DNA from: a virus
Reading direction: 5' to 3' (one strand)
Length of the DNA stretch: 64,000 bases
Virus record (IMG/VR): IMGVR_UViG_3300025759_000058
Positions 8,918 to 39,800 of this stretch are shown here, one piece after another. Position 1 is the stretch's first letter. Every line of letters starts with the position of its first letter. The notes below the pieces were generated by a model. It had not been told where the DNA came from. It did not search any database and saw only the letters and a list, made by a program, of their open reading frames with translations. A program made the translations under genes and the position numbers.

Positions 8918-9193
8918 ATGAGTATAAACAATAGACATTCTGTTGATCAGCAAAAGGTTCGTCGTTATGGACGTCATTACGGTTCAATTGATTTTGAATG
9001 TAATCAATCAATCGACGCAAATTTGTTTCAAAAATCACCGGAGCGTCCGGTCATTGGAACATTTATGATTGATAATAAATCATTTGATCTTACATGGGAC
9101 GAATTGGAACTTATCGAAGAAACGATGAAGACAGCACGTGAGACGACCATGAAGCGTTATCGTTTAGGAATGATGGGGAGATTGAGCAGATAA
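8918..9193 (+). CDS. Hypothetical protein
   Basis: 91-aa ORF within the gene run. Confidence 0.7.
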   Translation: MSINNRHSVDQQKVRRYGRHYGSIDFECNQSIDANLFQKSPERPVIGTFMIDNKSFDLTWDELELIEETMKTARETTMKRYRLGMMGRLSR

Positions 9194-9423
9194 TGGGGTT
9201 TCATCGTCGCAGTATTAACGTTGATCTAATTAGATCAGAATATTTGCGGCTAGGTTATGAAGGAATCGATAGACTTTTTAAGAAAGGAAGATATGATGTA
9301 TTATCATTAAGTGATGCAAAGTCAGTTAAAATTCATGATATCTTCCTTTCTTACTTTGATTCTGAGCTAGATAAATGCAAGCATATTCATAAGATTCTAT
9401 TTGATGAGATTAACGAAATCTAA
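9193..9423 (+). CDS. Hypothetical protein
   Basis: 76 aa; TAATG coupling. Confidence 0.7.
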   Translation: MGFHRRSINVDLIRSEYLRLGYEGIDRLFKKGRYDVLSLSDAKSVKIHDIFLSYFDSELDKCKHIHKILFDEINEI

Positions 9424-9492
9424 TATTTATTTTAAAGAGGGTATTATCCATGACCCAGTCACTCTCTTTACTATTAGATAATCTATAGTATT

Positions 9493-9885
9493 ATGAAGTT
9501 AAGTGACCTACAATTACATGAGGATGAATTTGATGTATTCATCGGACTTCCGCCGTCGTTAAAAATAGCTTTTATTGAAGATATACACCGTAACGGCGAA
9601 GTTGAAATTGAAAAATACTTGCAAGGAATGTATGATCGGCAAGATCTAATGTTTCAATTTCAAGAAGTAGTTGTTGATGATGAATATATGAGCGTGATAC
9701 AATATGGTGATGTGTTACGACTAAATGCATCTAGCCTTAAGCTTCTAAAAACATTCGTTAAAAAGCTTTGGATGGATGGTCTTATTTTATCTCGAATACA
9801 CGAAACAAAAACAATTTGGGATACGAGGAGATATTTACGTGTCTATAAATTGCTATCACAAGTATCACCTATCTGCGAAAATTAA
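9493..9885 (+). CDS. Hypothetical protein
   Basis: 130 aa; ATATTTAT at 9423 and a hairpin-rich leader. Confidence 0.7.
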   Translation: MKLSDLQLHEDEFDVFIGLPPSLKIAFIEDIHRNGEVEIEKYLQGMYDRQDLMFQFQEVVVDDEYMSVIQYGDVLRLNASSLKLLKTFVKKLWMDGLILSRIHETKTIWDTRRYLRVYKLLSQVSPICEN

Positions 9886-9901
9886 AAAAGTTTAAAATAA
9901 C

Positions 9902-9932
9902 TTGGCATTTAACGTTAAAGTTATTATATTTA
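9902..9932 (+). promoter_or_regulatory. Bacteroidota-type sigma-A promoter of hsp20
   Basis: TTG(9902)-N20-TATATTTA(9925-9932). Confidence 0.75.
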
Positions 9933-9942
9933 TATCTGAAAA

Positions 9943-10443
9943 GGGTTGATACTGCGGGTCGGCCATTTTTTAAAAATTATTGTTTAACCATCTAAGGAGG
10001 TAAAAATTATGAGTAGATATCCACTACAATCATTCGATCTCTTGTTTAGAGATATGTTTAATGCAAATTCAGATTTTGCATCAGCTTTTCAAACCAAAGT
10101 TCATCACCCAGTAGATATTCGAGAGACCGATGAAGGTCTTTTAATTGAGATTGCAGTCGTAGGAGCTGAGCGTGATGATATTGAGCTTTTGGCTCAAGGC
10201 GATACTATTAGGGTCGCATATCGCAAAGATAATCGTGAAGAAGACGATTATATCCAACGTGGGATTGCAAAACGCAATTTCGATTTAGGCTGGCGCTTGG
10301 CTAGTAAGTTTGTCGTTGAGCAGACAACAGCAACTCTTGATAAAGGGCTGTTGACTATCCATGTTCCATTTGTTAAAGAAGAAAAACCAGTTAAGGTTAC
10401 GATTAAGTAATTAGTTACGTAGGCCGGCCCGCAAATCAGCCTC
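9943..10443 (+). repeat. Imperfect GC-rich inverted repeat flanking hsp20 (arms 9943-9964 and 10422-10442)
   Basis: gggttgatactgcgggtcggcc pairs with ggccggcccgcaaatcagcct using G-U pairs and one small internal loop. Confidence 0.85.
10009..10410 (+). CDS. hsp20: Small heat-shock protein (Hsp20/alpha-crystallin)
   Basis: PVDIRETDEGLLIEIAVVG...RGIAKRNF...ATLDKGLLTIHVP; TAAGGAGGT at 9993-10001. Confidence 0.95.
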   Translation: MSRYPLQSFDLLFRDMFNANSDFASAFQTKVHHPVDIRETDEGLLIEIAVVGAERDDIELLAQGDTIRVAYRKDNREEDDYIQRGIAKRNFDLGWRLASKFVVEQTTATLDKGLLTIHVPFVKEEKPVKVTIK

Positions 10444-10475
10444 TTATACCTATTTTAAGAACGATTAACAACGCT

Positions 10476-10670
10476 TTGAAGCAATACCAGTATATAGATT
10501 ACCAGAACCAACTCTTTATTGTGGAACGTGTTATACGTAGAAGCCATTTTAAAAAAGAATTGGATAGTGTATTGTTAAAGAAATGGACACATTGTGATAC
10601 GATATTACAAAAAGATGACCATTTCTATTTTTGCAATTTAGTGCCTGATGCGGAAATAATTTCCGAATAA
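10476..10670 (+). CDS. Small hypothetical protein (TTG start)
   Basis: 64 aa; fills the gap to the next promoter. Confidence 0.6.
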   Translation: MKQYQYIDYQNQLFIVERVIRRSHFKKELDSVLLKKWTHCDTILQKDDHFYFCNLVPDAEIISE

Positions 10671-10671
10671 A

Positions 10672-10703
10672 TTTGGATTCGTACTTTTTTTCTCTTATCT
10701 TTA
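10672..10703 (+). promoter_or_regulatory. Bacteroidota-type sigma-A promoter
   Basis: TTTG(10672)-N20-TATCTTTA(10696-10703). Confidence 0.75.
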
Positions 10704-10722
10704 GATATAAGAAATTAAGAAG

Positions 10723-10829
10723 AAGTAAGAGCGAGTGAGTACGCTGTTAGGTTGGCATCAAGAAAAAGGGTTTGTAGTAAGGCCAGCATACCAGAAACCC
10801 CGAAACACCCATAAGCTCGCTCTTACTTT
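10723..10829 (+). ncRNA. Candidate structured RNA or 5' leader, about 105 nt
   Basis: Closing stem aagtaagagcgagt / gctcgctcttactt; inner gggttt / aaaccc stem; lies just downstream of a promoter. Confidence 0.55.
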
Positions 10830-10838
10830 AAATAATAA

Positions 10839-11309
10839 ATGACGATGAAAAATAAAGTTGTAATCTTCGATCTCGATGGCACATTGGCATTGATCGACGA
10901 TCGTCGCAAATTAGCGACAAAGCCAGATGGCAAAATGGATTGGGATAAATTTTTCGATCCTACAAATATTGATTTAGATTTGCCTAACGATCCAGTAATT
11001 CAAATGGCACAATCGCTTAAAGATTCTGGTAAAACTATTGTCATCTTTTCCGGAAGGAGTAAGGCGACCAAGGATGCTACTCGAAATTGGCTGAATCGCC
11101 ACAATGTACCATTTGATATTCTTAAGATGCGTCCGACCGGGCACCCATGGGCATTTATGCCAGATGATAAACTTAAGCAAGGATGGCTTGATGATTTGTT
11201 TACCGATAAGTCAGATATTCTTTGTGTATTTGATGACCGACAAAAGGTAGTAGATATGTGGCGAGCAAATGACATTACTTGTATGCAAGTTGCACCAGGA
11301 CAATTTTGA
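10839..11309 (+). CDS. HAD-family polynucleotide 3'-phosphatase (stand-alone PseT/Pnkp phosphatase domain)
   Basis: DLDGTL motif I, FSGR, MRP, FDDR motif IV; no P-loop kinase domain. Confidence 0.85.
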   Translation: MTMKNKVVIFDLDGTLALIDDRRKLATKPDGKMDWDKFFDPTNIDLDLPNDPVIQMAQSLKDSGKTIVIFSGRSKATKDATRNWLNRHNVPFDILKMRPTGHPWAFMPDDKLKQGWLDDLFTDKSDILCVFDDRQKVVDMWRANDITCMQVAPGQF

Positions 11310-11335
11310 TTTTTGAGAAATAGTTATTATCTTTA
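11305..11335 (+). promoter_or_regulatory. Bacteroidota-type sigma-A promoter, probably leaderless
   Basis: TTTG(11305)-N19-TATCTTTA(11328-11335); ATG at 11339. Confidence 0.65.
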
Positions 11336-11338
11336 TAT

Positions 11339-12391
11339 ATGAGTGATTTAGTACAAGTCGGTTATGCATGTGTTAACATGACATTAACAAGCCGGCCCAA
11401 AAAGTTAGGCGGCCGTGTTACAACGTCTCGCGGTTGTCGCAAAGCGACATGGTATCCTACGCGTGATTTGCATAAGTTAGGTGAGCTAGCATTAGCCAAT
11501 GCCAACGACTTGCTTATGTATCTCCGATGGAACGAAGAAAACAATATTCGCTTGTTTCGGCTAGGTTCTGAGCTTGTTCCATGGCACGACCAATTCGAGC
11601 TACATGAGCTACCGCAGTATGACGAGTTAGCAGATACGTTACGTATTGCCGGCAACTATGCCAAGCAGCATGGCCATCGTATTACGACACATCCCGGTCC
11701 GTTCCACGTATTAGGTTCGCCTACTCAAGCGGTCGCGGACAAGACTATCATCGGCCTCGAGCGCCATTCTGAGATATTCGATCTTATGGGGTTTGACCCG
11801 TCACCGCATAACAAGATCAATATTCATATCGGCGGCGCTTATGGTGACCATGAGACTACGGCCAAGCGATGGATTGCCAATTGGCAACGCCTATCCGATG
11901 CATGCAAGGCCCGACTTGTTATCGAGAATGACGACAAACCCAGTATGTACAGCGTTGTGCAGTTGTACGAGTTATTCCATCGAGAGATTGGTATTCCAAT
12001 TACGTTTGACTATTTTCACCATACATTCCATACTGGTGGTTTATCCGAACGCGAAGCGTTAGAGTTAGCCGGCTCGACTTGGCCGGACGATGTCGTGCAG
12101 TGTACTCACTATTCCGAATCACGACGTGATGAGCAGACATTAGCTTTGCAACGTGTATGTGAGTCCCATGGCATTAGCATTGACGATATGCCCAATTGGC
12201 CGACATTTGCCAAGATGCATGAGCAGTTTCAGAAGATCAAGGCTCAAGCGCATTCCGATTACATTACCAAGCCTATCGACAGCTACGGCAATCGCATCGA
12301 CGTCGTTGTCGAAGCCAAAGCCAAAGAGTTAGCCGTTTTACGGTATAAGAATGATGTAATTAAAGAAAATTCTAGATTGTTAGTTTCTTAA
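11339..12391 (+). CDS. uvsE: UV damage endonuclease (UvsE/UVDE)
   Basis: GYACVN, LFRLGS, THPGPF, INIHIGG, IENDD, FDYFHH, HYSES, AHSDYI, VEAKAKE. Confidence 0.95.
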   Translation: MSDLVQVGYACVNMTLTSRPKKLGGRVTTSRGCRKATWYPTRDLHKLGELALANANDLLMYLRWNEENNIRLFRLGSELVPWHDQFELHELPQYDELADTLRIAGNYAKQHGHRITTHPGPFHVLGSPTQAVADKTIIGLERHSEIFDLMGFDPSPHNKINIHIGGAYGDHETTAKRWIANWQRLSDACKARLVIENDDKPSMYSVVQLYELFHREIGIPITFDYFHHTFHTGGLSEREALELAGSTWPDDVVQCTHYSESRRDEQTLALQRVCESHGISIDDMPNWPTFAKMHEQFQKIKAQAHSDYITKPIDSYGNRIDVVVEAKAKELAVLRYKNDVIKENSRLLVS

Positions 12392-21074: not shown

Positions 21075-22244
21075 ATGTATAAACTTTATTACATAGAACG
21101 TGATACGACTATATATGAAAAATATCCAGAACGTAATACTGGATTAGATTCTATACTTGAATTAACAAAGATTGCATGTGGTTCTCGCGATGATATGGGC
21201 AATGTGTTAAGTAACACATATAATTCACGTGTATTGTTAGATTTAGGAAATAATGTAACGACGTTACGTACCGATATTAACAATGGTACTATACCTGCAT
21301 TTGCATCTCATCCATTATCGTCATCTGCATATTTAACATTACGATTGGCTAATGCAAATTCTGTACCGGCAAATTTTTCGATTGAAGCATATCCAATTTC
21401 GGAATCTTGGACAATGGGCACTGGTACATTTGATTCTGACCCAGAATCACGTGTAGGTGTATCATGGTACTATCGTAATGGGACTGATGTCAGCTTACCA
21501 TCTGCTTGGAATACTGGGTCTGCTCAATCAGCCGGCCAAGAAAGTGTTACTAATTTAAATGGCGGCGGCACATGGCTAACTAGTTCTGCAGATAATAGCA
21601 TAAGTTATCGAGCTAGTCAATCATTTAGTAATGCGGAAACTATAGATGTCCGTTTAAATATCACTCCGATAATGAATGCATGGATATCTAATGATATTTT
21701 AAATCATGGTTTAATTATCAAATGGCCAACGGCTGTTGAAATATCTGGCGACTTAGCTGGTAGCTTAAAATTCTTTGGTCGAGAATCAAATACGATCTAC
21801 GTACCTAGACTTGAAGTAGCTTATGACAATTCTATCTTATCTGGAACGGGTTCGTTTACTGAAATAAACAGCGATATATATGTTCCGTACTTTACAAATT
21901 TGCGATCTGCATATCATGAATCTGAGAAAGCTAAGCTACGTATTCAGACGCGACCAGAATTCCCGACACGTGCATATCAAACGTCTTCAGTATATTTAGA
22001 TAATTATAGATTGCCGACATCATCGTATTGGAGTGTTTTAGATTCTGTTACTGACGAAACTATCATTCCGTTTGATACGGGTTCTACGCGCATATCATGT
22101 GATTCGTCCGGTAACTATATTAATATAGATTTTAATTCGTTCTTAACGGAACGGTATTATAAGTTAGTACTACGTATTGAGCGCGAAGGTGGTGAAGATG
22201 TACAAATTCATGATAACAAATATTACTTTAGAGTAGATAGATGA
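21075..22244 (+). CDS. Virion structural protein, DNRLRE-like domain
   Basis: DTTIYE...SRVLL...NHGLIIK...PRLEVAY; lies in the baseplate cluster. Confidence 0.6.
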   Translation: MYKLYYIERDTTIYEKYPERNTGLDSILELTKIACGSRDDMGNVLSNTYNSRVLLDLGNNVTTLRTDINNGTIPAFASHPLSSSAYLTLRLANANSVPANFSIEAYPISESWTMGTGTFDSDPESRVGVSWYYRNGTDVSLPSAWNTGSAQSAGQESVTNLNGGGTWLTSSADNSISYRASQSFSNAETIDVRLNITPIMNAWISNDILNHGLIIKWPTAVEISGDLAGSLKFFGRESNTIYVPRLEVAYDNSILSGTGSFTEINSDIYVPYFTNLRSAYHESEKAKLRIQTRPEFPTRAYQTSSVYLDNYRLPTSSYWSVLDSVTDETIIPFDTGSTRISCDSSGNYINIDFNSFLTERYYKLVLRIEREGGEDVQIHDNKYYFRVDR

Positions 22245-24535
22245 TGGCAACAAACCGATTTACAGCAGCTAATAAACCAGAACATACATCCCCTACTCTA
22301 GATAGCCTTTTACTTGAGATAATGCGTGATGAGTTTCCTGATGACCCCAATTTTAAAGCCGGTATTCTGACTGAAGAACTTGACCCTAATCAAGAACTTA
22401 TCGATCAAGTTACATTACCTGAATTCGAACCTACTTCACGTAACTCGAGACAAGTATTACAAGTATCGCCATCTGTTGTACAACATACGAATTATCAACT
22501 TACAAAATCAATTCCGACTATTGACGAAGACATATTAGATGATTTGTTGGACGAAGAATGGAATTTCTTTTTAGATGAAGAAGTACAATATGAACCGGGC
22601 GTATCTGGATTATTTCTAATCCATCCAGACCAAATTAAAGAACCAGTAGATTATCATGATGCATATATTCAAGCTGGGCCACAAAACCTTGGTTCATTTG
22701 ATTCTGTGAATGATATTTTCTGCGTATATTTTATTCGTGATAATGTTGCATATCCTATACCTAATTACAAAACGTTAGAGGTCATGTTAGTAGAGCGTAG
22801 ATTGACGTACCGCGATATAACAATAGCTGATAATACTCAACTACAGCAGTTCGATTTATCTATGGATGGTAAAACTACTATTATAGATGAAGTAGTATCG
22901 CCGGAAGCGGAATTTGCAGCCCGTAGTTTATTTGATAGAAGTGCAGAATGGAATTTCCGTATTAGATATGAAAGTGGATATAGACCATTATCGCCGTTCA
23001 CGCGTGACCCAGGTGAATATATCGATCCTGTATCAAAAGGGTATTTTAATGCAGTTTATAGTAAGCAGACGTATCAGGAATCGTTAAGAGCTAGATTTGA
23101 AGGTAAAATGGTGATTTTATCATGGCCGCCGGCATCATTGACGGACGAAGAATTTAATTCAGAAGTTATACAAAACGACAATAACCAATTAAACGATTTA
23201 GTCAACGGCGTACGTATTATGACGAACGGTTATTGGAAACAGGTTACGGATGGCGAAGTATTTCGGTCATATGCATATGTAAATGATTTAGATGTGAGCG
23301 GGTATCAAGACCCTAACGGCAGATATGGCCGCGCCGGATATATTAACTTGTTAATACAAAATGGTGGCATAACTGTATTGTCGGGTGAAGATGTTGTAGA
23401 TGCTAGAGAAGGCTTAGATCCAGTATGGAATGAATTTGCACATATCATTGAAGCAGACCGAATGGATATAGATGAGTTTAAAACTTATATTGATACGTAC
23501 AGCAACAATCCATTTGATATTGAATATTTACTGCCATATGAACCACGTGGCAGTGTTAAATACTATGACCAAGATACATTAAATATTTTACGTGAGCAGT
23601 CCATAGAACAAAGTTTAATAAATAATTTAGTTGATACGATTAATATTAGATATGAGGAAATTGCAAGTATCGTAGCTAATGCAACCGTTATGCTAAACAG
23701 TACACAAAACTCTGCAATAACTGTTCTAGATCAGATTGAAAATGATATAACTCGAATAGGCGATGCAAGTGATAGATGGCAATTTATCAAGTTTAAAAAT
23801 AACGGCAACATAAAAGTTAAAGGTACTGAACACTCTTTATTTAGATTAGTTGAAACAACGCAACGTATAACTTCTAACTTAACAACATCGCAAGAAGATG
23901 AGATTGCAGGCGAATGGTCACGTGTTGTTAATGCAGACTCAGTTACGTTAAGTGAAGTAGGTTCGAATTCAGGTAATGTAAAAAACGCTCAGACGTTTGA
24001 ACTTCCTAGAGACGGCATTGGACGTGATAAACCATCAATGAAGAGTAGTAGTTATATACGTGCTAGTATATTAAATGCATTTTATTATAAATGGGATATT
24101 GCCGGCGACAGTGTTAACACTGGAACACGCGCGAACGTGCGCGAATTGGCAGAAGATATCGATAACACTCGGTCAGCAACTGCGAATGAATTTCAATTAT
24201 TAAGTAGCCAATTTGATGATATTACAAATGCAATTGCTACTAGTGATACAGTAGAACAATTCCAAGAAATTTTAAATACATTAAATGCAATAGATAATGC
24301 ATACATAGAATTTAATAATTCAGTAGACGATGTCAATGATTTTATTTTTACTTTAAATTCAAATACTAAAGCATATATTAATAACGTATATGAATCTATA
24401 CAACTTCTTCGTAAAAGAATATATAATAACGTCGGTAATAGTAACAAGTTTGCTATTAAATGGCCAGCAACGGTGATTGCAATAATAGAAAAATACTCAC
24501 CCGGTAAAACGTATACAAATTACCAGAAGTCTTAA
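22241..24535 (+). CDS. Large hypothetical protein, probably structural
   Basis: 764 aa in the baseplate cluster; helical C-terminus. Confidence 0.7.
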   Translation: MMATNRFTAANKPEHTSPTLDSLLLEIMRDEFPDDPNFKAGILTEELDPNQELIDQVTLPEFEPTSRNSRQVLQVSPSVVQHTNYQLTKSIPTIDEDILDDLLDEEWNFFLDEEVQYEPGVSGLFLIHPDQIKEPVDYHDAYIQAGPQNLGSFDSVNDIFCVYFIRDNVAYPIPNYKTLEVMLVERRLTYRDITIADNTQLQQFDLSMDGKTTIIDEVVSPEAEFAARSLFDRSAEWNFRIRYESGYRPLSPFTRDPGEYIDPVSKGYFNAVYSKQTYQESLRARFEGKMVILSWPPASLTDEEFNSEVIQNDNNQLNDLVNGVRIMTNGYWKQVTDGEVFRSYAYVNDLDVSGYQDPNGRYGRAGYINLLIQNGGITVLSGEDVVDAREGLDPVWNEFAHIIEADRMDIDEFKTYIDTYSNNPFDIEYLLPYEPRGSVKYYDQDTLNILREQSIEQSLINNLVDTINIRYEEIASIVANATVMLNSTQNSAITVLDQIENDITRIGDASDRWQFIKFKNNGNIKVKGTEHSLFRLVETTQRITSNLTTSQEDEIAGEWSRVVNADSVTLSEVGSNSGNVKNAQTFELPRDGIGRDKPSMKSSSYIRASILNAFYYKWDIAGDSVNTGTRANVRELAEDIDNTRSATANEFQLLSSQFDDITNAIATSDTVEQFQEILNTLNAIDNAYIEFNNSVDDVNDFIFTLNSNTKAYINNVYESIQLLRKRIYNNVGNSNKFAIKWPATVIAIIEKYSPGKTYTNYQKS

Positions 24536-36866: not shown

Positions 36867-39800
36867 ATGTCAGAATATACGTTTCGTGAGTTAGCTGTAC
36901 GGCCGAAAGTTGCATATGTAGGATATAAGGATTATACATATACGGTCAACGATACGAGCCTAACATCTCCAGATTATTTTGAAATAGTCGAATTTCCGTC
37001 TAAGTTAACTGCAGGAAAAAATTTAATCAAACTACGAGCCAATCGTAATAACCTGGTCAATAATAGTAATATTAATGTTGAAATTTTAGATTACAACGGA
37101 GACCCAGTTTATTACAAGCCAATACGATATAGCGAACGTGATGGAACTAGAGTTATTGCAATTTATGTTTATCCAGAAACATCACCTGGTCCAGCACGTA
37201 TTTATTTAACTGGCAGAGCTCGGTTTGACCAACGTGGTAATGAACTACGATCGAGTCAAGATTATTCAGATTCAGATTACATAAATCGGCCTAATTTGAT
37301 ATGGTCACGTTCCGTAACAATTGCTCCAGATGATCCTAACAGTACAGAAATAATATTTGTTAAACAGCCGCAAGTATTAATAACAGAATCTGTACAACCT
37401 TACTTTCAACCAGTAACAACTACAAGTGTATTTACAAAAGTAAGCAGTTCTGGAATACCTAGTGATTTATCTCTAGGATTTGGATACCAAACTAATTTAC
37501 CTGTAGGCTCACCACCGCCGATATTACCTGCCGCATTTGAAAGTGAAACAGGCGAAGATGCTAATGATATTACTGTAACAATTACACCTGCAAATGTATT
37601 TACTAGCGCTGTAACTGTAGGCGATACTATAGAAGAATCTGGTGCAGCAACAACTAGTAATCCTGTTTCTATCGTAGTCGGCAATGGTGTTGATTTTACA
37701 TTAAGCCCTACTACGCTTTCAGTTATTGAAGAGTTTTCATTCACATCGGCCATGGAAGACGGTGTTATTACAGTGACTAATCCGTTGGTATTAGCACCTA
37801 ATGGCACTAGTGCATATGTATTTGGAACTGAACAAAACGGTTTCGATGTAGCAATACCGGTGGGTATGAACGTAGCTCCGACTAAAATGGTGCAAATTAA
37901 TGCAGCCGGTCAAGTACGTTTATATGGTACATGGACATTTGGAATAAGGTCTGTACAAAATGCTACTAAAGCGCGTGTAGTGCAGATCGACGGGTATGAT
38001 AATAATTTCTTTAATACAAACGATGCTCCATTATGGCGATTCTTAGGTAATAGTGCTACATTTACAGGATTTCCGGCAAACATGAATTCCGAAGCTGCAG
38101 TTGCTGCTAGCGGATTTGATGTAACATCTAATCGAATTGAATCGGCTAACAACTTTACGTCTAGTTTTATTGAACCATATATAGTAACAGAAACAGAAAA
38201 TTCTGCTTCATTTGCTGATATTATTCTTTCTAATATAGAACCCGAAACGGGTGATGTATATAAAGTTAAAACACTGTTTAAACCATCCGGTATGTTTGGT
38301 GATTTTATCGATTTAGGTGATACTATTTTAGAAGAACAAGAGCTTTTAATTGATACTGAATCATTTGAAACTAATGTTACTGTTGGTGCGGTATATGAAC
38401 ATTTCGGTCGTTTTGAATCGTTAGACGAAATTAATACATACTGGGAACGAGTTAAATCAGACGGTTCAGATGCAACATTTACCGTTAATACTGCAAATAT
38501 ATTTGGTACTATTTACGACCCATTAGTCAACCCGCCTACCGGTTTAATGCGATATTCTGTGCTGACATATGATGATACAAATTTATTAGGAGGCGCGCAA
38601 TTCGATATCGGCCCCTATACTAATTTTAAATTAGATCAAGGCGTATTATTCTGGATTAAACAGCAATATCGTCCAAAATTATATGCTAATACTACATATA
38701 AAGTTAGAGCGAAATTATTATTACATAGCTCTGCTCCGGCAATTGAAGATGATCGAATTCCATTTCCAAGAATTGATATGTACGTTTCTGGATCGAAACC
38801 GACATTATTATCTGAAAACATAATAATTGCCGGCAATGCCTCATTACCTAACAATTGGCAAGAAACATTGACCGGAGATTTTGCTGATGGGTCTGTTGCT
38901 GGCTATCATTTGGGTACGGTGACATGTACCGATGTTGACAATACTAGGATAGATGTAGAATTTTTATTTAAAGTCGAAGCAGATGTTCCAGAATCTAATT
39001 TAGGATTTATGTTGAGATCTGGTGAATGGACTATTGCTGACATTGAATTAAAATCTTATAAAGAGTCTGGATTCTCACCAAACTATGTGCGTATAGGAAA
39101 ACGTGTACCTACCGAACATTTAAAAACGCCTTTGACGTTCAAGTTCCAATATTATGATTATACGGGTAAGCTAGCCAATCAACAGACAACGGCATATGGC
39201 GTAGTATTTCAAGGTGATAATTTTTACATAGATGGTGTTAACAATATTCTTACTGGATCGCTATTCTTAGGTAACACTATTGGAACTGGTGTAGAAATGG
39301 CCGGCGTTAATTCGGCATTTATACGTTCCGTAGGGTATTATGGTTATTCAGCTTCATTAGCAACGGGTAATGAAAAGAATGGAGGATTCCTAATCTATAG
39401 TGGTTCAGTACTACCCGCTGAAAAAAATTATTTCGGCGATGATATCTACAAAGGCGTCGGAATGGAATTAGTAGCGGATGATGATGCCGGCCATTTAATA
39501 TTCCATACTAATCCTTCGATACTTGATATTAAAGCCAGAACATTCTTTATTGGAGATTCGGACACACAATTTATATCCGGGTCAAATGGTAACATAGAAA
39601 TATCATCATCATTCTTTCATTTGAACCCGAAAGATTCCGAAGCTAAAATTGGCGGCTTTGTTGTAGAAGAAGATCAAATAAGATCATCTGCAGATGAATT
39701 AAATCTAAAATCAAACGGTCAAATATCCGGATCAGAATTTAGATTACGTAGAAGTATTGGCGGCTCGGACTATACATATGCTGACACGGTTCAAGGATTT

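Follow-up and report, generated by a model that had tools for sequence, protein, structure and literature searches.

The hsp20 gene of the virus sequence analysed here (IMG/VR record IMGVR_UViG_3300025759_000058; the whole stretch of 64,000 nucleotides is called the window) is flanked by two arms, 9941-9964 and 10422-10445, that form a 22-bp RNA helix with two or three G-U pairs on the + strand. The structure of this long-range helix, which we call the clamp, is near certain, and the comparison of related phage loci indicates that it is under selection; what it does for the message we infer. A first-pass annotation had proposed that the whole hsp20 ORF sits inside such a stem. Indeed, the helix encloses the Shine-Dalgarno (SD) sequence, the ORF and the stop codon.

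Geometry and conservation of the clamp

The hsp20 ORF (10009-10410, + strand) encodes 133 amino acids matching the Pfam family HSP20 (PF00011, E 3.9e-9) and ends in a TAA codon at 10408-10410. The 5' arm (9941-9964, + strand) consists of an outer (9941-9943), a lower (9944-9950) and an upper part (9953-9964), with A9951 and C9952 unpaired, and lies 44 nt before the ATG; the 3' arm (10422-10445, + strand), identified by fold, duplex and covariation, begins at the 12th nucleotide beyond the stop codon (11 nt between). In the upper helix, U9953-C9964 pairs with G10422-A10433 over 12 bp, including one G-U pair (U9959.G10427); in the lower helix, G9944-U9950 pairs with A10435-C10441 over 7 bp, again with one G-U pair (U9946.G10439). 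A 2x1 internal loop (A9951 and C9952 opposite A10434) separates the two, and three outer pairs (A9941-G9943 with C10443-U10445) require that U10442 be bulged. The annotation had counted three G-U wobbles: two are present in both registers, and the third, G9943.U10442, exists only in the alternative register that it had used.

Folding of 9935-10450 gave minimum-energy and centroid structures that were both closed by exactly the proposed stem (-149.2 kcal/mol, z = -4.25; 0 of 100 shuffled sequences folded equally well). In 36-nt windows, the arm duplex had an energy of -39.6 kcal/mol for the + strand vs -32.4 for the - strand; kinetics, ribosomes and proteins are outside this folding model. The sequence and the fold thus bear out the arm positions given in the annotation, and its estimate of about 20 bp corresponds to the 22-bp helix described above.

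Next, we compared the pairing with that around other genes by folding the upstream flank of each of 64 non-overlapping + strand ORFs against its own downstream flank. The strongest flank-to-flank duplex was that of hsp20 (-44.4 kcal/mol). Among 2,956 non-cognate flank pairs, the mean was -24.3 (sd 5.7), and only 0.24% were as low as hsp20. Since hsp20 ranked first of 64 and non-cognate pairs rarely reached its value, the duplex is specific to hsp20 and not a genome-wide habit. The 12-bp upper helix alone is unexceptional, and about 40 ungapped helices within 3 kb reach the same score; the significance rests on the whole helix, its location in both UTRs and its conservation.

Because the hsp20 stem is interrupted by G-U pairs, it escaped a scan of the whole window that relied on exact 7-nt Watson-Crick seeds, and long-range pairing was scored instead by a diagonal scan with G-U allowed. 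Three further pairings are recorded here as separate observations. The strongest long-range pairing of the window by far (about -51 kcal/mol) is a 35-nt inverted repeat at 22410-22444 and 23947-23981, 97% complementary, 1.5 kb apart and with both arms within a 764-aa ORF (22241-24535). A GC-rich pairing of 39285-39319 with 39472-39506 (AAATGGCCGGCG... with ...GCCGGCCATTT), about 150-200 nt apart, had -35.2 kcal/mol on the + strand vs -24.2 on the - strand. Finally, a perfect 13-bp inverted repeat (10723-10735 and 10816-10828) closes about 106 nt without an ORF 5' of the PNKP-phosphatase gene.

For the comparative analysis, hsp20 loci were gathered from viral contigs, metagenome contigs and a protein collection, and 26 hsp20 relatives reached E <= 1e-10. 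A DNA search with 9400-10900 against 50,697 phage records gave no match, and a search of genome contigs gave no bacterial relatives of the window hsp20. In all relatives down to about 45% amino acid identity, the 5' flank pairs with the 3' flank. The main family (family A) is represented by 13 distinct sequences in an alignment that we call A2, in which 88% of the helix cells are standard pairs, vs 28-48% after the 3' partners were shifted by 1-3 columns. Both-sided changes occurred in 16 of the 22 pairs, and none of 500 shuffles reached the observed values. Within the upper helix, 96% of the cells are paired, and the double changes include GGCC to GATC, CGG to TAG and GCGGG/CCCGC to ACGGG/CCCGT. 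A central internal loop or bulge recurs among the relatives, and its UAC on the 5' strand is invariant. Covariation across the hsp20 flanks, the check that the annotation had suggested, is therefore present, and the arms are conserved as a pairing. Outside the clamp, family A has kept the segment 10408-10418 (TAATTAGTTAC; A2 columns 509-519), which overlaps the stop codon of hsp20, with hardly any change.

The arms are wholly different between clades and form at least six families with unrelated sequences, found in contexts that include the position after DNA polymerase A and before cpn10/cpn60, beside lysozyme and next to uvdE. We asked each 5' flank to choose between its own 3' flank and those of other arm families: the cognate flank beat every other in 22 of 22 distinct loci, with a mean of -32.1 vs -14.7 for the flanks of other families (sd 3.8, best -26.7). 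Across arm families, the helix is 17-28 bp long and the 3' arm begins 1-15 nt beyond the stop codon; the 5' arm ends 41-44 nt before the ATG in most family A members, and in families D-F this distance is 49-57 nt. That the arms were rebuilt with unrelated sequences makes the comparative evidence of selection on the pairing itself unusually strong.

Two loci, L091 and L106, were left out. L091 (ERZ27313225 k141_1160755, 913 nt) has an hsp20 ORF and a 3' arm but an unrelated 5' flank; because an Illumina adapter forms its end, we regard it as a probable assembly chimera rather than a natural variant without the clamp. The 15-nt arm core was found in 63 stretches of the viral contigs, 2 of them from hsp20 relatives and the others taken as chance, and the 3' arm pattern matched only two close relatives in these contigs. 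By protein, the phage records contained distant hsp20 genes in pelagiphage HTVC115P and cyanophages S-H38 and MA10 (27-33% identity), whose flanks carry ordinary local terminators (-15 to -22 kcal/mol) and no clamp; the same holds for L113 (33% identity). The clamp is therefore not universal to phage hsp20.

The substitution pattern also points to the nucleic acid on which selection acts. In the helix columns, 18 cells are G-U and 3 are A-C, although these cells are not all independent events, and the + strand duplex is more stable than the - strand duplex in 9 of 13 sequences. Whole-flank duplex energies of the two strands were indecisive, and it was the count of G-U vs A-C cells that decided. 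All genes at the locus lie on the + strand, and a search for the arm core elsewhere in the 64 kb gave no second occurrence, the other arm being its reverse complement. Together, the G-U bias, the covariation, the + strand stability, the single copy and the shared gene orientation support, at the level of sequence comparison, pairing of the arms in the sense (+ strand) hsp20 transcript. The view of the annotation that selection acts on RNA, and that the arms are not a transposon end, is borne out by the covariation, the 18:3 excess and the cognate pairing in all 22 loci.

The predicted 5' hairpin and the ribosome-binding site

Before the 3' arm is available, the 5' arm can fold on itself: at 9944-9964 (+ strand), GGUUGAU and GUCGGCC form a local hairpin with the loop ACUGCGG and 3 G-U pairs, which is extended by the A run at 9939-9942 and the U run at 9966-9971. 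A consensus scan flagged the 5' arm with the following ATTTTTT as terminator-like. In the partition function, the local hairpin had a probability of about 1 in an RNA that stops short of the 3' arm, vs 0.000 in the full-length RNA, and in the model the clamp contributes about -30 kcal/mol beyond the local-hairpin state. Among the relatives, 85% of the local-hairpin cells are paired, vs 16-55% when slid, and the covariation of this hairpin is moderate (29-30 of 500 shuffles were as high). The 3' arm alone folds weakly, since C.A takes the place of the G.U of the 5' arm. The modelling thus predicts a metastable local hairpin that is replaced by the clamp. The central segments of the two arms, UGCGGG and CCCGCA, are complementary, so that a loop-loop contact could start the exchange.

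The SD sequence AAGGAGGU (9994-10001) is held in a second, separate hairpin (9987-10001, + strand) with the pairs A9987-U10001, C9988-G10000, C9989-G9999, U9991-A9998 and C9992-G9997 and a bulged A9990. Its sequence is nearly invariant in family A; by eye, a C-to-U change in L075 is matched by a G-to-A change, and in L084 a C-to-U change gives a G-U pair. The perfect SD (UAAGGAGGU) thereby pairs with the upstream ACCAUC in a small conserved hairpin, and its presence would be striking if the host belongs to the SD-poor Bacteroidota.

The annotation had also suggested temperature control, which the modelling disfavours. The clamp had a probability of 1.00 from 10 to 45 °C, the SD lies outside the helix, and its accessibility was unchanged (0.38-0.39 with the 3' arm, 0.37-0.38 without it). 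The accessibility of the AUG was likewise nearly equal with and without the 3' arm, both sites hardly responded to temperature, and the separate SD hairpin at 9987-10001 showed no modelled temperature response. An RNA thermometer of the ROSE, fourU or hsp17 type was rejected as a candidate, given a clamp that excludes the SD and stays formed at 10-45 °C. Judged by the footprint sizes of initiating and terminating ribosomes, a helix that lies 44 nt before the ATG and 11 nt past the stop codon is outside both footprints, and the closed message should therefore stay translatable.

Promoter, downstream gene and extent of the transcript

A promoter-like site (9902-9932, + strand) precedes the clamp, with TTGG(CA) at 9902, a 19-nt spacing and the box TATATTTA at 9925-9932; it was also scored as TTGGCA-17-TATATT (9902-9930), in both cases as a consensus match only. 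We infer that transcription starts at about 9936-9939, so that the pairing would begin 2-5 nt further on. The TATATTTA box lies 2-13 nt 5' of the 5' arm in 11 of 22 relatives, which represent several arm families. The TTTG-N19-TAnnTTT(A/G) shape of the site fits what we take to be the Bacteroidota type of promoter, and by this promoter type the host of the phage is probably a member of the Bacteroidota. A 20-nt promoter-like direct repeat (GTTATTATnTTTATATnTGA) occurs at 9920-9939 and 11323-11342; the last bases of the second copy include the ATG of uvdE (11339), which suggests a leaderless uvdE mRNA. In the clade B locus L093, a canonical terminator (GGGAGAAA...TTCTCCC followed by a T run, about 1095-1125) stands directly 5' of the TATATTTA box and the 5' arm, which makes hsp20 its own transcription unit on the 5' side there.

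On the 3' side, a conserved 64-aa gene, orf64 (10476-10670, + strand), begins 31 nt past the helix. In both family A and family B, hsp20 is followed by a homologue of this gene (32% identity, E 5e-9). These partner genes encode 64-74 amino acids (1993-2217 in L089, 1666-1890 in L093) with one invariant Cys and Tyr, precede cpn10/cpn60 in one clade and matched no Pfam family; the product may be a chaperone partner. Judging from the gene arrangement, hsp20 and orf64 are probably co-transcribed, and since the conserved orf64 lies only 31 nt past the helix and shows no evident promoter, the 3' arm may be intercistronic. In family B, no more than 32-39 nt separate hsp20 from the partner gene, and the 3' arm occupies this gap; by its position, the arm is probably intercistronic there and not a 3' end. 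The transcripts of the window and of family B thus probably run into orf64 or its homologue, and the 3' arm would be at a 3' end only if they are terminated or cut there. A weak hairpin followed by U7 at about 10664-10691, which the terminator scan did not flag, may end the hsp20-orf64 unit.

A U tract follows the helix in some lineages only. L075 has no partner gene; its 3' arm is directly followed by U7 and then by a new promoter-like box, so that the helix would join both ends of a monocistronic message in this phage. The first-pass annotation had described the stem as closing the mRNA. The part of this description that stands is that the arms pair around hsp20; closing of the whole mRNA may be an overstatement, given the conserved orf64 31 nt downstream in the window and the 32-39 nt gap in family B.

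Candidate functions and relation to known systems

Four functions had been proposed for the stem, and RNase III excision and end protection are the two leading ones; nothing in the analysis supports circularisation. The reading that we prefer, at slightly less than even confidence and partly on the strength of modelling, is a translatable clamp that stabilises and delimits the hsp20 cistron, perhaps through RNase III. According to this proposal, transcription would start a few nucleotides before the 5' arm, and the nascent arm would fold on itself into the G-U-rich hairpin which, with its A and U runs, buries the 5' end in the model. The 3' arm, emerging 11 nt past the stop codon, would then displace the hairpin with a gain of about 30 kcal/mol, perhaps nucleating at the UGCGGG and CCCGCA loop segments, and the resulting 22-bp clamp, whose structure the covariation shows, would enclose the SD, the ORF and the stop codon. 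Such a clamp would make the 5' end inaccessible to 5'-end-dependent decay and set a double-stranded block or a defined end just past the ORF, and host RNase III may trim its 3' strand where the transcript continues into orf64. We favour protection by a translatable clamp because the 5' arm is at the extreme 5' end, a stand-in hairpin is available during transcription and the ribosome footprints are avoided; the hbs precedent described below is in keeping with this. Helices of about 17-28 bp are longer than required for protecting an end and make good substrates for RNase III, so that they could serve cleavage and decay instead.

Whether the clamp is chiefly an RNase III processing or decay site, i.e. 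a helix of about two turns cut by the host enzyme, is more doubtful, though this reading ranks first among the alternatives and may complement the preferred one. Cleavage could free hsp20 from an hsp20-orf64 or hsp20-orf74-cpn10-cpn60 transcript, like the stems around 16S and 23S rRNA, or could trigger decay as in icaR. That every arm family keeps a helix of 17-28 bp although the sequences are unrelated fits a structure-specific rather than a sequence-specific reader, and the 22 bp in the window are within the range of about 20 bp or more expected of RNase III stems. The recurrent central internal loop or bulge and the invariant UAC on the 5' strand also fit, as internal loops restrict phage T7 RNase III sites to a single-strand cut and the clamp loop resembles these. 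Likewise, the 3' arm that fills the gap in family B would be internal to an operon transcript. A control search found RNase III in Bacteroides thetaiotaomicron, while none of three records of phage relatives, including a complete 179-kb genome, contained an RNase III gene; only the host enzyme could therefore act. However, a processing site need not be at the extreme 5' end, the hairpin that buries this end would be unexplained, and L075 looks monocistronic with U7 right after the helix. Moreover, RNase III processing overlaps protection by the clamp and is not exclusive of it.

We consider it unlikely that the arms act as a long-range terminator or attenuator, in which the 5' hairpin and its U run halt some transcription just past the promoter and/or the clamp is a terminator stem with a 460-nt loop that insulates the downstream genes. 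Besides the terminator-like flag on the 5' arm, U-rich tracts follow this arm in all family A members, and U runs directly follow the 3' arm in L075, L082, L084 and L087, where the arm also folds locally; measured against the pattern of a stable hairpin plus U tract, L075 and L084 have both at the 3' arm. The window has neither (no stable hairpin), and like L001, L068, L070 and family B it lacks a U-rich stretch beyond the helix. The 5' stem is weak (7 bp including 3 G-U pairs), the conserved orf64 without an evident promoter needs read-through, and a terminator would leave unexplained why the arms have to be complementary to each other.

Still less probable is a translational or thermal switch, in which the clamp or the hand-over to it gates ribosome access by temperature or 3' processing in the manner of hok tac/fbi or of a thermometer. 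It would suit a heat-shock gene such as hsp20 and the conserved SD-holding hairpin with its one matched double change, and a 5' hairpin that yields to 5'-3' pairing is the hok design (PMC9841398). Against it stand the modelled clamp probability, which is complete at every temperature from 10 to 45 °C, the SD and AUG accessibilities, which hardly depend on the 3' arm or on temperature, and the location of the SD about 30 nt outside the helix.

Very improbable, finally, is a DNA-level inverted repeat (mobile-cassette ends, a recombination or inversion site, paired operators or PeSL-type shuffling motifs): hsp20 does occur in several contexts (next to uvdE, cpn10/cpn60 and lysozyme), T4-like phages do carry PeSLs, promoter and stem-loop cassettes around accessory genes (PMC2839356), and the window is T4-like (Portal_T4, E 2.2e-81), but the arms covary without keeping any single sequence, the G-U excess leaves several positions mismatched in DNA and in the other strand, the arm sequence is unique in 64 kb, the arms are inverted whereas PeSL repeats are direct, no recombinase or transposase is nearby, no target duplication borders the arms, and a 22-bp repeat is probably too short for efficient homologous conversion. 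The window also encodes a T4-type terminase and a baseplate wedge protein. Terminal repeats of a transposon or MITE were likewise rejected, as the arms covary, differ completely between clades, are single copy and have edges without duplication. Annotators should be aware that GC-rich inverted repeats flanking accessory phage genes need not be mobile-element ends.

Pairing between the 5' and 3' UTR of one bacterial mRNA is known from a few individual genes (hbs, icaR, hilD and hok). In Staphylococcus aureus icaR, the 3' UTR pairs with the SD region, which blocks translation and promotes decay with RNase III cleavage. The hsp20 clamp resembles it in that intramolecular 5'-3' UTR pairing makes double-stranded RNA within one mRNA, but the hsp20 SD lies outside the duplex. 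RNase III stems flank 16S and 23S rRNA, and the sites in T7 early mRNA are local hairpins between genes. With these, the clamp shares a helix of about two turns that flanks a whole functional unit and has an internal loop near its centre; those stems are, however, cleaved, around rRNA or as local hairpins, whereas the clamp is a candidate substrate.

The icaR mRNA is named as a case of 5'/3'-UTR pairing in the work on Bacillus subtilis hbs, where a 14-bp pairing of this kind influences mRNA stability and inhibits cleavage within the leader (Braun, Durand and Condon 2017, PMC5737220). Like hbs, hsp20 has selected complementary 5' UTR and 3' UTR segments of one gene, and the likeness extends to a small, highly expressed gene with a strong SD whose 5' UTR pairs with the 3' UTR just past the ORF (PMC5737220). 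The hbs duplex is 14 bp long, A/U-rich and of -19 kcal/mol, with a normal terminator after it (PMC5737220), while the hsp20 clamp has 22 bp and about -40 kcal/mol, is at the very 5' end and competes with a local hairpin; it has been retained in many phage lineages whose arm sequences are unrelated, and another cistron may lie downstream of it.

In hok (hok/sok of plasmid R1), the 5' end and the 3' UTR close the full-length mRNA after a transient 5' hairpin (PMC9841398), and in hsp20 a metastable 5' hairpin replaced by 3' pairing is found in silico. The closed hok mRNA, however, hides its SD, 3' trimming activates toxin translation, and an antisense RNA exerts control (PMC9841398), whereas in hsp20 the helix does not include the SD, the model shows no effect on it, and the product is a chaperone. 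Membership of the hok type was rejected: the SD is not sequestered, HSP20 is not a toxin, and no Rfam antisense family was found in 9000-11500.

The PeSLs of T4-like phages likewise combine an accessory gene with an early-type promoter joined to a G-T-containing stem-loop with A/T runs (PMC2839356, PMC4122927), and at hsp20 the promoter-like site is joined to the hairpin at 9944-9964. Each genome carries many PeSL copies, and genes are shuffled when these recombine with one another (PMC2839356, PMC4122927). The hsp20 arms were rejected as PeSLs, since the arm core occurs only at hsp20 in the 64 kb and its second copy is inverted. An Rfam search of 9000-11500 gave a chance-level match only (E 0.98), and a helix split by 460 nt is hardly detectable by Rfam models; a literature search found no description of an hsp20 clamp. 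What the present analysis adds to the first-pass annotation is the local hairpin predicted to be displaced, a clamp that in the model does not melt and is neutral for the SD, and the conserved 64-aa gene that follows.

We tentatively propose, with less confidence than an even chance would warrant, that a closed-loop mRNA architecture of phage hsp20, often together with the small partner gene, is widespread and undescribed: a metastable hairpin would give way to a clamp outside the ribosome footprints, repeatedly rebuilt, which during infection keeps the chaperone message stable and translated or allows it to be cut precisely from an operon. With hsp20, the UTR-pairing design belongs to a single gene family in many phage lineages, where it was rebuilt with unrelated sequences. 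With about 500 nt and ready-made compensatory variants, the clamp is a compact natural test system that could reveal the effects of end pairing on mRNA decay, RNase III action and translation. To our knowledge, the mRNA biology of Bacteroidota is poorly known, and the clamp is relevant to research on both phage gene expression and bacterial mRNA decay. If the proposal is true, this would be the first family-wide case of end pairing as a positive expression element in bacterial-type mRNAs.
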